Shown one piece after another: positions 3,655 through 57,637 of a stretch of 64,000 nucleotides of DNA (positions are counted from its first letter, which is position 1; each line of letters starts with the position of its first letter). Source of the stretch: Clostridiales bacterium (GTDB taxonomy: Bacteria > Bacillota > Clostridia > Oscillospirales > Oscillospiraceae); assembly GCA_012523085.1 (NCBI GenBank), contig JAAYJC010000038.1:62-64061 (forward strand), read 5' to 3'. The notes beneath the pieces are model-generated. The model saw only the letters and a list, made by a program, of their open reading frames with translations. It made no database searches and had not been told where the DNA came from. The translations under genes were made by a program, and so were the position numbers.

Positions 3655-3760
3655 AGCGTGAATATTCTTTCACATACGGAAGAAATCGATTTGGCCGCCA
3701 AAATATGGCCATCGATTTTTCCCGACTATTTGTGCTGTCGCTTCGCGGCAGAATGGAGAT
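3655..3760 (+). repeat. Modular intergenic repeat, copy A (modules M1+M2+M3), ending at the start codon of the URO-D-like gene
   Basis: M1 is AGCGTGAATATTCTTTCAC. M2 is GGAAGAAATCGAT..ATCGATTTTTCC (3678-3722). M3 is TTTGTGCTGTCGCTTCGCGGCAGAATGGAG (3727-3758), followed by ATTAAT and ATG at 3765. Nearly identical to copy B at 31716-31869 read on the minus strand. Confidence 0.75.
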
Positions 3761-3764
3761 TAAT

Positions 3765-4775
3765 ATGCTGAGTGCAAAACATAATTTCCTTGAAACGATA
3801 AAACGCGGCGGAAAGCCTGACCGGATCGTCAAACAATTTGAGGGTACGGCTTTCCTGCCCGGAGATCCCGTAGCCATGTTTGTTCGCGGTCAGCGTTATG
3901 CAGGTATGCCTCCGATGAAAGATTTGTGGGGGACGGAAATCATCTGGCCCGAGGGGGTACCTGCCGCAATGCCTCATGTGACGGAGCAGATAAAGGTCAT
4001 AAAAGACATCACATCCTGGCGCGATTTTGTAAAAGTTCCGGATCTGATTGCAAACTGTTCTCAGGATGAGATTTGGGAACCTTATTTGGAACGGGTAAAT
4101 GCTGTCGACAGGGAAAACGAACTCGTAATGGCGTTTGCGCCTACCGGCGTTTTTGAGCGCCTGCACTTCCTGATGGGTTTTGAAGATTTGTTCATAAATT
4201 TCATGACCGAGCAGGAGGCAATGAAGGATTTATGCGAGGCGATCGGCGAATACCGGTATAACGGGATGAAGCTTATTATTGACCATGCCCGCCCGGATGT
4301 TCTCCTTTCCCATGACGACTGGGGCAGCAAAAGCAATCTTTTCATACAACCGTGGCTTTGGCGGGAATACATAAAACCGCAGTATGAAAAATCATATGGC
4401 TATGCGCATGACCGCGGCGTCATAATAGAGCATCATGCCGATTCCTTCTGTGAGCAGATAGTGGAAGATATGGTAGAGCTGCATATTGACGTTTGGCAGG
4501 GTGTGCTGCCTCAAAACGATATTCCTAAACTGCAAAAACAGCTGGACGGGCGCATGGCGCTTATGGGCGGCATTGACGCGGCAATTGTTGACCGCGCCGA
4601 TTCCACTGAAAAAGAGATCCGTGCTGAAACACGCCGCGTTCTGGATGCGTATTGCCCGAACGGCAACTTCATACCATGTATCACCTACGGAGCCCCCGGA
4701 ACGATTTTTCCGCAGGCCGATAAATATATTAATGATGAAATTGACAGATACAATTCCGAAAAGTTCGGTCTATAA
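3765..4775 (+). CDS. Uroporphyrinogen decarboxylase (URO-D) family protein, MtaA/CmuA-like TIM-barrel fold, function unknown
   Basis: 336 aa from the ATG preceded by GGAG. The segment ...LLSHDDWGSKSNLFIQPWLWREYIKPQY... and the overall length are typical of URO-D-family proteins. I could not see the classical HxC...C zinc motif of MtaA. Confidence 0.7.
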   Translation: MLSAKHNFLETIKRGGKPDRIVKQFEGTAFLPGDPVAMFVRGQRYAGMPPMKDLWGTEIIWPEGVPAAMPHVTEQIKVIKDITSWRDFVKVPDLIANCSQDEIWEPYLERVNAVDRENELVMAFAPTGVFERLHFLMGFEDLFINFMTEQEAMKDLCEAIGEYRYNGMKLIIDHARPDVLLSHDDWGSKSNLFIQPWLWREYIKPQYEKSYGYAHDRGVIIEHHADSFCEQIVEDMVELHIDVWQGVLPQNDIPKLQKQLDGRMALMGGIDAAIVDRADSTEKEIRAETRRVLDAYCPNGNFIPCITYGAPGTIFPQADKYINDEIDRYNSEKFGL

Positions 4776-4813
4776 GAGTACACCCAACCAAAAAGCGTAC
4801 GGAGGAATGACCT

Positions 4814-55388: not shown

Positions 55389-56038
55389 TTGTTTAAGCTA
55401 TAGAAATAGCTCAAAATCAAATCCCCGTTCCAGATTCCGCCTGTGCCTTCTACCGCAAATCTTTTGTAAAACGCGCTGATGAATTCGCGCCGGTCGTCAA
55501 AGATCAGCTTGCTGATATCAAAATTGAGCAGTTGCCTGTTATATAGCAGTTTTTCAAACCGGGCGGATTTAGACTGCTCTATCACATCCGGGATACCATA
55601 GCCATGACGTTTCGCCTGAAGAAACGCGTCCCACAGTTCATATCCACCGTAATGATCCAGCAGATCCGCGTCCTGAAGCAGCTTTACATAATCGGAAAGC
55701 TGCTTTTTGTCGCATACGCGGTCCTCATGGCCGGAGATAAGAGCGCAAATTTTTCGGATATCTGCGCCGCTGCAGTATTCTTTAAGCCGTTCGCCGGTCA
55801 TTTCCGCGCTTTGCCTGGCATGGTTATCATGATCGCCGGCGATGTCATGAAACCACGAAGCAACGGTCAACAGCCTGTCATAGCTGTCATCATCGGGTAA
55901 AATATACTTTCTCAGAGATATTACCAGCCTGCCGACACGCTGGCCGTGATCATAGGCATCCCCGATTTCGCCTGATTCATCGGCTGCCCTTTTTTCCATC
56001 AAACCGTATGCGGTTTGCCTGATCGATTCAAGATCCAT
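55385..56038 (-). CDS. HD-domain phosphohydrolase
   Basis: 217 aa. H...HD motif (ASWFHDIAGDHD) with downstream His/Asp residues. Confidence 0.75.
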   Translation of the reverse strand: MDLESIRQTAYGLMEKRAADESGEIGDAYDHGQRVGRLVISLRKYILPDDDSYDRLLTVASWFHDIAGDHDNHARQSAEMTGERLKEYCSGADIRKICALISGHEDRVCDKKQLSDYVKLLQDADLLDHYGGYELWDAFLQAKRHGYGIPDVIEQSKSARFEKLLYNRQLLNFDISKLIFDDRREFISAFYKRFAVEGTGGIWNGDLILSYFYSLNN

Positions 56039-56153
56039 ATCAAAGCTCCTCGTTCTTTATATAAGCGCTTTGAGTAAAGTCATTTTCCTGCTTTTCAGTA
56101 TACCGCAAAATACGACACAAATCCAGTCAATTAGGATCAAGAAAGCCTGATAA

Positions 56154-57584
56154 TCAGCCGAATGGTATTGGGCGCTTTATGACCGTGAAATTCTCATTTA
56201 AAAGGAACCAGTTTTCCGGGAACGGGTACCCCAGCGCCCAATAGCTGATGCCTCTTAAGTCATAAGCTTTGACGGCGTCAAACTTCGCCTGAGCGCTCCT
56301 CGCGTCCTCAAACCAGACCTCATGCATTCTGCCTTGTTCGTCCCTGTACCGGAAAAAGGGCGACTGCGCCTGCTCATCATACTGTATTTCCGCTCCGTAT
56401 CTGACCGCTCTGCGCCGGGCTTCCTGTGCGCTGAAGGTTTCGGCCTGCCGGCCTGCTTGATGGGGCAACAGCCAGTCCCGGGCGTAAAGCTGAAATCCGA
56501 AGAAGATTTTATCCTTAGGCATCACGGAGACCGCGTATGAAAGCACCCGTTTAATCGGCCCGATCGGCGATATCGCCTGAGGCGGGCCGCCCCGCCAGCC
56601 CCATTCATAGGTCATCAAAATGACGAAATCCAGTATTCTGCCGTGCGCCGCGTAATCATGCGCTTCGTATAAAAGACCGGCCTGTTCGGCGCCGTATTTC
56701 GGCGCAAGCGCGGATGACACAGGATAGCCGAGCGGATGCAGGCGGTTAACCGTCCGTAAAAGGAAGCTGTTATACAACTCGCGGTCGTCAGGCAGAACAT
56801 TTTCAAAATCGACATTCAAAACAAGATAGCCTTTATCTTGCATAACAGCGATTATGTTATCAAGTAAGCGCTCGGAGATCACGGGGTCGGCCAGAACCGT
56901 GTGCGCAAGGTTTTCGCCGCGGGATGTCGATGTGAAATTCGTTATAGCCATCATAGGAACGATATTCAAGCGGTAGGCTTCCCGGATGGCCGGGCTGTCG
57001 TCAATCGACTGCAAACTGCCGTCTTCTTTTATCAGATAGGCGAAAGGGGAAACATAGGTCAGGCTGCCGCCGTTTTCCCTGATAATCGGAACGGCTGGCT
57101 CTCCGTAGATATAGATATAGCCGTTAACCTCGATGGGAGGCCTGTCTATTCTCAGCGGAATGACAAGCGTATTTCCGGGATAAATCAAATCAGGGTTTGA
57201 AATCCCGTTTACTCTGACCAAATCGTTAAGGGAAACACCGAAGTTTTGTGAAATGCCAAGTAAGGTGTCATTTGTTTTGACCGTGTACCGGCCGGCCGGG
57301 ATATGCAAAATCTGATTTACTTCGAGGCGGTCCGGATTAGCGATGTTGTTTTTCTGTACGATGGCCCCAACGGTCGTACCCAGCATATTTGCGATGTTCC
57401 ACAGGGTATCACCGGTTTTGACCGTATACAGCCTATCCTGCGTTGGAATGGCGAGCGCTTCTCCGACCAGCAATGTATTTGTGTCCGGCAGAGAGTTGAC
57501 TGCCGCGATGGCAGCGGTCGTGACGCCATACAGTCCGGCAATCCGGCTGAGGGTCTGACCGGGCCTGACAATATGTATGATCAT
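56154..57584 (-). CDS. LysM(x3)-glycoside hydrolase family 18 protein, YaaH/SleL-like spore peptidoglycan hydrolase
   Basis: Three LysM repeats (HIVRPGQTLSRIAGLYGV, YTVKTGDTLWNIANMLG, YTVKTNDTLLGISQNFG), then a GH18-like barrel containing LNVDFE. Confidence 0.85.
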   Translation of the reverse strand: MIIHIVRPGQTLSRIAGLYGVTTAAIAAVNSLPDTNTLLVGEALAIPTQDRLYTVKTGDTLWNIANMLGTTVGAIVQKNNIANPDRLEVNQILHIPAGRYTVKTNDTLLGISQNFGVSLNDLVRVNGISNPDLIYPGNTLVIPLRIDRPPIEVNGYIYIYGEPAVPIIRENGGSLTYVSPFAYLIKEDGSLQSIDDSPAIREAYRLNIVPMMAITNFTSTSRGENLAHTVLADPVISERLLDNIIAVMQDKGYLVLNVDFENVLPDDRELYNSFLLRTVNRLHPLGYPVSSALAPKYGAEQAGLLYEAHDYAAHGRILDFVILMTYEWGWRGGPPQAISPIGPIKRVLSYAVSVMPKDKIFFGFQLYARDWLLPHQAGRQAETFSAQEARRRAVRYGAEIQYDEQAQSPFFRYRDEQGRMHEVWFEDARSAQAKFDAVKAYDLRGISYWALGYPFPENWFLLNENFTVIKRPIPFG

Positions 57585-57637
57585 ATAAACCTCCATTCTG
57601 CCGCTAAGCGGCACAACGTGAAAATTCTTTTCACGCT
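57585..57637 (-). repeat. Modular intergenic repeat, copy D (M1+M3), ending at the LysM-GH18 start codon
   Basis: Minus-strand reading: AGCGTGAAAAGAATTTTCACG, TTGTGCCGCTTAGCGGCAGAATGGAGG, TTTAT, ATG. Confidence 0.75.

Follow-up and report, generated by a model that had tools for sequence, protein, structure and literature searches.

Dispersed repeats of small size are familiar from Proteobacteria, streptococci, neisseriae, and mycobacteria and are little described in uncultured Clostridia. Mobile elements of the IS200/IS605 type and their derivatives have subterminal hairpins and no terminal inverted repeats, and they insert directionally, 3' of a 4- to 5-nt target and without target duplication, in an orientation linked to the replication fork. 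The MIRUs are intercistronic repeats of 40 to 100 bp that are transcribed with operons, are apparently mobile (filled and empty sites, short direct repeats), and are described as inserting at start codons while the gene stays expressed (PMC3184786, PMC12548453). The Neisseria REP2 and Borrelia IR-A/IR-B repeats, 120 to 150 bp long, lack terminal inverted repeats, contain two internal stem-loops, and lie immediately upstream of open reading frames (ORFs), beside the ribosome-binding site (RBS) as well as the ATG (PMC3184786). The pneumococcal BOX repeats (boxA-boxB(n)-boxC) are modular, highly base paired, intergenic, and regarded as akin to MITEs (miniature inverted-repeat transposable elements); they are transcribed as 5' or 3' extensions of operons (PMC3049150). 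In Proteobacteria, the REP/BIME, ERIC, and Correia sequences are small, palindromic, intergenic, and co-transcribed and can have orientation-dependent effects on mRNA stabilization, cleavage, and attenuation (PMC3049150, PMC3184786). Here we describe a family of intergenic repeats, with copies of 45 to 170 nt, in a 64-kb stretch of DNA (the window) from the metagenome-assembled genome (MAG) of an uncultured "Clostridiales bacterium" from an anaerobic digester. The family is undescribed, and the kind of element it represents is already known from other bacteria. Its copies come and go, such that a locus occupied in one genome is empty or decayed at the orthologous position in another, and they are probably non-autonomous, modular elements of a MITE-, BOX-, or MIRU-like kind that insert directionally at Shine-Dalgarno (SD) sequences and leave an SD on both sides.

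Seven modular copies at gene boundaries

The initial annotation of the window had reported seven intergenic copies (A to G) built from up to three modules (M1, M2, and M3). All seven copies and all three modules are present at the positions given, as confirmed by reading, by shuffles, and by an all-against-all comparison of 36 intergenic regions, in which the linked set consisted of exactly the seven named regions and no others. Within the window, the M2 terminal repeat ATCGATTTTTCC, with at most one mismatch, has 9 matches versus 1.05 expected (0 of 100 shuffles as high), the M1 hairpin pattern GCGTGAAA-N(2-12)-TTTCACG occurs at 3 loci versus 0.01 expected, and the M3 core GCGGCAGAATGGRG has four exact matches, which are copies A, B, C, and D. 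A full copy is composed of a left hairpin (M1), a core with 12- to 13-nt inverted repeats and internal hairpins (M2), and a linker with the M3 hairpin that ends ...GCGGCAGAAT. The combinations M1+M2+M3, M1+M2, M1+M3, and M2+M3 all occur, and M1 can be in tandem (two units in B and three in C), with the units direct rather than inverted. The start positions and extents of the copies are as follows.

Copy A, full element, 3655..3754 (+): imperfect M1 hairpin at 3655-3677
Copy A, M2 with shortened core: left repeat GGAAGAAATCGAT at 3678-3690, right repeat ATCGATTTTTCC at 3711-3722
Copy A, right end: linker and M3 hairpin to ...GCGGCAGAAT at 3754, then SD GGAGA at 3755-3759 and ATG 3765 of a URO-D-family gene
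Copy C, 11533..11613 (-): three tandem M1-type hairpins fused directly to M3, without M2, ending ...GGCAGAAT at 11533
Copy C, flanks: SD GGAGG at 11532-11528 and ATG 11523 of an Rsm22-type methyltransferase gene; stop of the upstream SRAP gene at 11627
Copy E, between modC and moeA, 25582..25733 (+): extended M1 at 25582-25613, right after TAA 25579-25581
Copy E, M2 and right end: M2 at 25614-25679, diverged 3' part to ...GAAAAT at 25733, then SD GGAGA at 25734-25738 and ATG 25744
Copy F, between moaA and moaC, 27939..28088 (+): M1 at 27939-27960, right after TAA 27936-27938; M2 at 27963-28027
Copy F, right end: diverged 3' part to ...GGATAT at 28088, then SD GGAGG at 28089-28093 and ATG 28100
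Copy G, partial or rearranged member, 30068..30126 (+): unrelated 20-bp perfect hairpin at 30068-30110, overlapping TAA
Copy G, right part: M2 right repeat ATCGATTTTTCC at 30109-30120, then CGGAAT; start codon GTG of the downstream gene at 30168
Copy B, full element, 31726..31870 (-): begins TAGCGTG at 31870; two M1 hairpins at 31869-31832; M2 at 31827-31758
Copy B, right end: linker and M3 to ...GGCAGAAT at 31726
Site B, right copy of the SD core, GGGGG, 31721..31725 (-): followed by TTTTT and ATG 31715 of a HAAS/DUF4097 gene
Site B, left copy of the SD core, GGGGGG, 31871..31876 (-): within the 3' end of a PadR gene
Copy D, 57595..57639 (-): one M1 hairpin (AGCGTGAAAAGAATTTTCACGTT) fused directly to M3, ending ...GGCAGAAT at 57595
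Copy D, flanks: SD GGAGG at 57594-57590 and ATG 57584 of a LysM/GH18 gene; SD-like GGAG to the left at 57643-57640

Two refinements apply to the extents given in the initial annotation: E and F reach past their earlier limits, to 25733 and 28088, through a diverged 3' part that ends ...AAT and ...TAT directly ahead of GGAGA and GGAGG, respectively, and G is only a partial member, without M1, in which 16 nt (AGCATCGATTTTTCCC) plus the CGGAAT tail are common to the family. The near identity of A and B over about 50 nt was borne out (93% across 46 nt and 91% across 43 nt), and their flanking genes are unrelated. Every copy has the orientation of both flanking genes, as had been claimed. M1 had also been placed at the upstream stop codon in B, E, F, and G; it begins at or directly after that codon in B, E, and F, whereas copy G has a 20-bp hairpin other than M1, which begins inside the TAA. 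The further claim that M3 ends at the start codon in A, B, C, and D is right in that M3 is docked upstream of the ATG, but GGRGR and 4 to 5 nt lie between them, meaning that the docking is on the SD.

The genes downstream of the copies code for a URO-D-family protein (A), an Rsm22-type methyltransferase (C), MoeA (E), MoaC (F), a MoCF-domain protein (G), a HAAS/DUF4097 protein (B), and a LysM/GH18 protein (D), and their functions bear no relation to each other.

Filled and empty sites and their Shine-Dalgarno flanks

We found insertion polymorphism between related genomes at sites A, B, F, and G and at one site in a relative. Most of these comparisons use L183, a syntenic contig of a relative (GCA_030153565.1) whose DUF4097 protein is 71% identical to that of the window, and L031, a locus of the metagenomic chromosome OW818648.1. 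At site B, the window has a copy where L183 and L184 have none, and the same holds for site G relative to L183, whose spacer there is 33 nt long. At site F, the full window copy corresponds to a decayed M2 remnant in L183 and to an empty site in L031 (ATCGGAGGATAGAAGGATG); at site E, L183 has a shorter, decayed remnant. Conversely, the moaC/MOSC junction holds a copy in L031 and is empty in both the window and L183; this copy consists of M1 and M2 only, and its right terminus is the M2 right repeat. At site C, GGAGGTTTT(G)ATGGAACTGCC is shared by the relative L185, which lacks the element. Six relatives have no copy at the site orthologous to A, among them a relative with 91% protein identity. 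A clean empty site for copy A was sought among the closest relatives, but these have a sequence like the M1 arm before the ATG, which makes the comparison ambiguous.

This sequence, G(G/T)GTGA(C/A)ATATG, precedes the URO-D-family gene in L191 (155-178) and L186 (9975-10003), with no recognizable SD, and resembles the 5' arm of M1. It may be a deletion scar between AATAT repeats, or the SD at site A may have been brought by the element. In L183, the gene calls break both moaA and the ABC ATPase gene in two (9421-10358 and 11728-12768), probably through assembly frameshifts of that MAG.

The comparison of filled and empty sites also shows where the element ends. The element proper stops at ...GCGGCAGAAT, and the GGRGG SD, spacer, and ATG to its right are native at both sites that can be compared, B and C. 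At site B, L183 has a single ...ATCATTAACGGGGGTTTTTATGATGACAAA..., whereas in the window the sequence to the right of ...AAT (GGGGGTTTTTATGATGACAAA) is identical to the empty site and that to the left of the element (ATCATTGACGGGGGG) is homologous to ATCATTAACGGGGG of L183. Since both flanks are homologous to a single empty site, the GGGGG core of the SD is present twice at site B, and this SD duplication can be read directly from the two sites:

Site B, empty (L183): ATCATTAAC-GGGGG-TTTTTATGATGACAAA
Site B, filled (window): ATCATTGAC-GGGGGG-(TAGCGTG...GCGGCAGAAT)-GGGGG-TTTTTATGATGACAAA

The first bases of copy B (TAG) now serve as the stop codon of the PadR gene. At site C, the sequence to the right of ...AAT, GGAGGTTTTATGGAACTGCC, matches the empty L185 site, GGAGGTTTTGATGGAACTGCC; thus, SD, spacer, and ATG are native there too, and M3 docks on the SD and not on the start codon. 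Two further sites suggest SD duplication. At site F, the left flank ATCGGAGGCTAA (27927-27938) repeats the right flank ATATGGAGGTAG, and both resemble the single SD region of the empty relative, ATCGGAGGATAG; at the filled L031 site, both flanks likewise resemble the single SD region of an empty relative, and the duplication has diverged, as at F.

Across copies, the left flank is enriched for an SD-like motif: 13 of 20 copies have an SD 4-mer (GGAG, GAGG, AGGA, or GGGG) within the 12 nt that precede the left hairpin, compared to 7.5% of background 12-mers (P = 1e-10). The left flank of a copy also agrees more closely with the right flank of the same copy than with those of other copies (permutation P = 0.018); for example, GGGGGATA flanks the L019 copy on either side, and GAGGTTA does so in L089. 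Where a copy lies in a long 5' leader (A, D, L075, L089, and L136a), it still exactly adjoins the SD, so a lack of space alone does not explain the docking. In L058, a copy lies beside GGAG-N6-ATG and an ORF of three codons, and the real gene follows after another 129 nt, an arrangement in which docking follows the SD-like motif and not a gene.

Orientation, relatives, and comparison with described repeats

We found the same M1-M2-M3 layout in OW818648.1 (4.2 Mb), in Clostridiales UBA1316, in a Papillibacter MAG, and on LSQX digester contigs. The underlying pattern scan covered one genome per species, and its matches were mostly due to chance, with multiple real ones in OW818648.1, UBA1316, and the Papillibacter MAG; a metagenome scan added a tight subfamily on the LSQX contigs plus one further contig. 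By a URO-D-family protein, the closest named relatives of the window are Papillibacter MAGs and Sporobacter termitidis. Thus, the family exists across related genomes and differs among them in which sites are filled. In all, 23 copies were examined, 7 from the window and 16 from relatives, and one more was later obtained in L187, a start-codon-docked copy that was the only further one found when an M3 covariance model was run on about 105 kb of relatives' DNA fetched irrespective of the repeat. In the relatives, the order is left hairpin, core bounded by inverted repeats, linker, right hairpin, GGRGG, 4 to 6 nt, and ATG, and the genes that follow are again mutually unrelated. Their N-terminal peptides, read without a family search, are presumably PstB-, MiaA-, DEAD-box helicase-, short-chain dehydrogenase-, and hydroxybutyryl-CoA dehydrogenase-like.

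The orientation bias seen in the window extends to these copies, as a long same-strand ORF lies immediately downstream in 22 of the 23 (one-sided binomial, about 3e-6); the exception, L072, is truncated. The plus strand of the window carries A, E, F, and G and the minus strand B, C, and D, each copy matching its own gene, while the cumulative GC skew rises without reversal. Orientation therefore follows the gene and not the replication fork, which rules out an orientation set by replication.

Copies from different genomes are 76 to 96% identical and copies within a genome are 81 to 96% identical, compared to 64 to 72% for syntenic coding DNA of the window and OW818648.1. Identity above that of coding DNA would indicate constraint on the element or recent spread, and it fits elements that are competent for transposition or have spread recently.

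Searches for a described counterpart agreed with the initial annotation that this is not a named RNA family. An Rfam scan of the window at gathering thresholds returned only a molybdenum cofactor (Moco) riboswitch, and E-value scans of 25400-32000 and four loci returned only subthreshold noise of miRNA- or snoRNA-type hairpins, so we rejected a known RNA family. We also rejected an origin in phages or plasmids: blastn against both gave no match, and six pattern matches on viral contigs were due to chance, with only seed-level scores against the family profile. The family's sequence motifs had only chance primer matches in the literature.

Several described repeats share part of this organization. 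Like the MIRUs, the window family is intercistronic, co-oriented, and apparently mobile, with apparent short direct repeats at filled sites. MIRUs, however, have ORF ends that overlap the neighboring genes and often form tandem arrays, whereas our family has no consistent reading frame (read from the M1 GTG, only 8 of 13 copies stay open to the far end of the element), its junction is at the SD rather than at the start codon, and it has distinct hairpin modules, a clostridial host, and no sequence similarity to MIRUs. Placement just upstream of ORFs, next to RBS and ATG, is shared with REP2 and IR-A/IR-B. REP2 brings a promoter, RBS, and ATG, in contrast to the window family, in which the SD and spacer at B and C, as well as the ATG, are native, no sense promoter-like site is present in E, F, G, or B, and several copies are intercistronic, with site A ambiguous. 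BOX likewise has three kinds of unit, the middle or first of which is variably repeated in one family or the other, but BOX is enriched between convergent genes and occurs in both orientations (PMC3049150), while the window family is strictly co-oriented, SD docked, and without sequence relationship to BOX.

The M1 palindrome is the size of a REP. Yet REP/BIME, ERIC, and Correia sequences occur in both or (BIME) alternating orientations and are not tied to SDs, and REPs need RAYT, none of which applies here: 22 of 23 copies are gene oriented, tandem M1 units are direct, and no RAYT gene was seen. Hairpins at both ends and the directional association with GGRGG recall IS200/IS605 elements, which differ from the window family in its apparent SD duplication, in its gene-linked orientation on both strands of one replichore, and in that no TnpA gene was found. 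What remains in common with MITEs is that the copies are small (less than about 300 bp), non-coding, multicopy, and polymorphic in insertion between related genomes. The REP/BIME- or MITE-like behavior proposed in the initial annotation therefore holds in the broad sense that the family is dispersed, modular, hairpin rich, absent from Rfam, and polymorphic at orthologous loci. From MIRU, REP2/IR, and BOX it differs each time in a tested defining feature, namely, the lack of a consistent ORF, the native SD (at two sites), and strict co-orientation, respectively.

Origin of the docked, co-oriented arrangement

We consider it probable that the family is a non-autonomous mobile repeat that docks on SDs. 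Such an element would enter DNA directionally at the SD pentanucleotide GGRGG, and after insertion one SD would lie at its left end and one at its right, produced either by a 5- to 6-bp target-site duplication or by insertion immediately 3' of the target by an element with an SD-like end. The right-hand SD would keep its native spacing to the ATG, the gene would stay translatable, and the insertion would survive. Directional insertion at an SD followed by purifying selection would thus leave copies that are co-oriented with the downstream gene and have M3 apparently docked at the start codon, all at the DNA level; at a tight junction whose SD falls within the last part of the upstream gene, as at B and F, M1 would appear docked at the stop codon. 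In the initial annotation, co-orientation and start codon docking had been taken to imply a role at the RNA level. Such a role is possible, but the native SD at B and C, the left-flank motif, and the GGGGG duplication at B make it unnecessary for explaining the arrangement. Effects on mRNA stability, processing, operon segmentation, or translation are possible consequences of the element, whose copies would be co-transcribed with their own genes (E, F, and G within a Moco operon) and fold into stable hairpins. We infer a transposition mechanism and its enzyme, and the orientation was presumably fixed as the element inserted and not through selection alone.

A more specific version of this proposal, which we put forward tentatively, is a transposable element that homes to the RBS: it would recognize the SD pentanucleotide in DNA, insert one way, regenerate the SD at native spacing, and so colonize 5' leaders and tight junctions of essential genes almost neutrally, with the left SD and the M1 GTG perhaps forming a coupled upstream ORF that would convey ribosomes past the hairpins.

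Several observations weigh against an SD-docking mobile element. The duplication is clean only at B, with F and L031 diverged, and the test of self-matching flanks reached only P = 0.018. Site A is ambiguous, with the M1-arm-like G.GTGA.ATATG and no SD in L191 and L186. The right-hand GGRGG and its AT-rich spacer are more uniform across copies than the native RBSs of the window, such that they could be partly element borne. At its outermost ends, TAGCGTGAAA... and ...GCGGCAGAAT, the element shows no clear inverted repeats; perfect inverted repeats of 12 to 13 nt bound only the internal M2, perhaps a unit that is nested or separable. Near none of the copies did we find a transposase or an autonomous partner, and beside the atypical copies L058 and L072 there were only unannotated ORFs apart from a MoxR ATPase, an ABC ATPase, and an FAA hydrolase. 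Copy density is uncertain, at 7 per 64 kb in this preselected window versus 1 per about 105 kb of relatives' DNA. Finally, conservation across genomes above that of coding DNA could also mean a selected function.

A full copy folds at -59 kcal/mol (z = -4.2 versus shuffles), and in the M3 hairpin and linker stem, 89.5% of the pair cells are paired. The covariation proposed as a check is present in M3, with a score above shuffles (0.156 versus 0.113; 4 of 500 shuffles as high) and a pair, 31-46, that is U-A in 7 sequences and C-G in 6, but it is modest, and there is little in M2. The M1 hairpin is kept while its sequence shifts from GCGTGAAA to GTGTGAAA, GTGTGAGG, ATGCGAAA, and ATATATGAAAAC. 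On the sense strand, G·U and A·C pairs number 5 and 6 in the M3 hairpin and 7 and 5 in M1, a symmetry that does not single out the sense RNA as the selected molecule; DNA hairpins, for example as seen by a transposase, fit equally. Together, these data argue weakly at best for selection at the RNA level. They bear on a cis-regulatory RNA regulon, in which a conserved leader or intercistronic RNA, bound by a trans-acting protein or small RNA that controls downstream translation or stability, must sit on the RBS and is therefore oriented and docked. Stable folding, M3 pairing and covariation, the survival of the M1 hairpin through changes from C-G to U-A and from U-A to C-G, a linker stem (CUAUU/AAUGG) that extends to the first two G's of the SD, and the high identity of copies across genomes all favor such a regulon. 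We nevertheless regard it as distinctly unlikely, given that the downstream genes are functionally unrelated, positions differ between orthologous operons, the left-flank SD motif and the duplication at B are unexpected for an inherited leader, and the symmetric G·U and A·C counts, the 81 to 96% identity within a genome, and the scant covariation in M2 also speak against it. The same unrelated genes and shifting positions led us to reject a metabolite riboswitch or regulon. An exapted device for mRNA processing or stability that segments operons is unlikely as well, although it would be compatible with a mobile origin; M1 would protect the upstream 3' end, M3 beside a strong SD would act as a 5' stabilizer, and cleavage would occur in the M2 duplex or the AU-rich linker. 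It would account for M1 right after stop codons in B, E, and F and M3 right before the SD, for the presence of E, F, and G in one operon that begins with a Moco riboswitch, and for the terminator-like ends of G and M2 (a hairpin and then UUUUU), and ERIC, Correia, and BIME elements are reported to act in an analogous way (PMC3049150). Many copies, however, lie in 5' leaders without an upstream cistron (A, D, L075, L089, and L136a), the same junctions work element free in relatives, and no strand-specific G·U signature is seen.

Translation of the element itself appears quite improbable. In a MIRU-like arrangement, the left SD would drive initiation at the M1 GTG, and the ribosome would melt the hairpins and terminate at or next to the ATG of the gene, thereby delivering ribosomes to it. 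The left SD motif does start 9 to 12 nt upstream of the M1 GTG (about 5 to 8 nt between the 4-nt motif and the GTG), and the GTG frame runs open from one end of the element to the other in 8 of 13 full copies, of which six stop at -4 to +5 of the ATG, B stops at +14, and L019 has no stop that we found; MIRUs, too, are described as inserting at start codons with a coupled internal ORF (PMC12548453). But 8 of 13 is not clearly above the chance of an open frame in these stop-poor sequences (about 0.3 to 0.4), five copies have an early stop, and stop codons number 40 in sense and 45 in antisense. The frame varies between copies, and close copies differ by 1-nt indels, as expected of non-coding DNA. 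For these reasons (1-nt indels, an open frame that differs between B and L089, and equal stop counts on both strands), an element-encoded small protein or leader peptide was rejected, as was an element-borne promoter, since we detected no sense-strand promoter-like site in E, F, G, or B. Very improbable, in our estimation, are DNA-level sites for protein binding or recombination that were never transposed, such as REP/BIME-like sites for gyrase, IHF, or RAYT, an operator palindrome, or integron attC-like sites. The near-perfect M1 palindrome with GTGAAA...TTTCAC and the perfect 12-nt inverted repeats of M2 with ATCGAT would suit such sites, while the co-orientation of all copies, without BIME-like alternation, and the insertion indicated by filled and empty sites and SD duplication would not. 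M1 also varies in loop length (3 to 6 nt) and stem sequence while keeping its pairing, which is unlike a dimer operator and excludes a CRP/FNR-like one, and the flanking genes are core genes in conserved synteny and not cassettes, which excludes an integron attC array.

Some further features of the copies are recorded here. Copy G fits an intrinsic terminator, with its 20-bp stem followed by CGAUUUUUCC; in other copies, the U run belongs to the outer helix of M2, and none of A, B, C, and D received a canonical terminator call. An inner M2 pyrimidine tract (CAUUUGCUCC(U/C)C or CAUUUUCUUC), at L089 3190-3200 and at the equivalent position in L104, L072, L015, and window copy E (25660-25668), has complementarity to the purine-rich left repeat GGAAGAAA as well as to an SD (GGAG), and it could form an alternative pairing that would sequester the SD. 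M3 has no in-frame stop, and mechanical ORF calls extend four downstream genes into the element (ORF starts at 3705, 11592, 31748, and 57614); a spurious 66-aa ORF (31699-31899, minus strand) runs across copy B. Annotators of such genomes should be wary, since repeats docked at start codons can give rise to falsely extended N termini and to small ORFs and are a likely origin of annotation errors.

Copies E, F, and G all lie within one Moco operon, at whose start the riboswitch (22602-22736, plus strand; Rfam RF01055, 63.8 bits) stands upstream of modABC and moeA-moaA-moaC-MOSC-MoCF, preceded by a promoter-like site at 22568-22596. Four successive RBSs of this operon (25730-25746, 26975-26993, 28085-28102, and 28603-28620) have a common (A/T)ATGG(G)AG before the start codon, which resembles the M3 tail AATGGAGG; a recognizable element is now present at only two of the four junctions, and the motifs may be old, decayed copies or a coincidence. 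Elsewhere in the window, near-perfect palindromes of 40 to 58 nt that are unrelated to the family (8552-8608, 22134-22177, 30704-30752, 36858-36897, 36974-37024, and 57712-57769, the last between copy D and its upstream gene) are located at gene ends and convergent junctions and are probably large terminator hairpins. The 1494-aa SLH/metallophosphoesterase gene (17639-22123) contains, at 18603-20647, three to four direct repeats with a period of about 800 nt and 67 to 78% identity, presumably repeated protein domains of a cell-surface enzyme.

If the copies are indeed SD-docking mobile repeats, the family would represent a mobile element that uses the RBS itself as its landing pad, which would explain how a parasite can occupy operons of core genes without destroying their function. 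It would then also be a natural source of structured intercistronic inserts, with likely effects on mRNA stability and translation, and its insertions could provide strain-level markers for digester populations.

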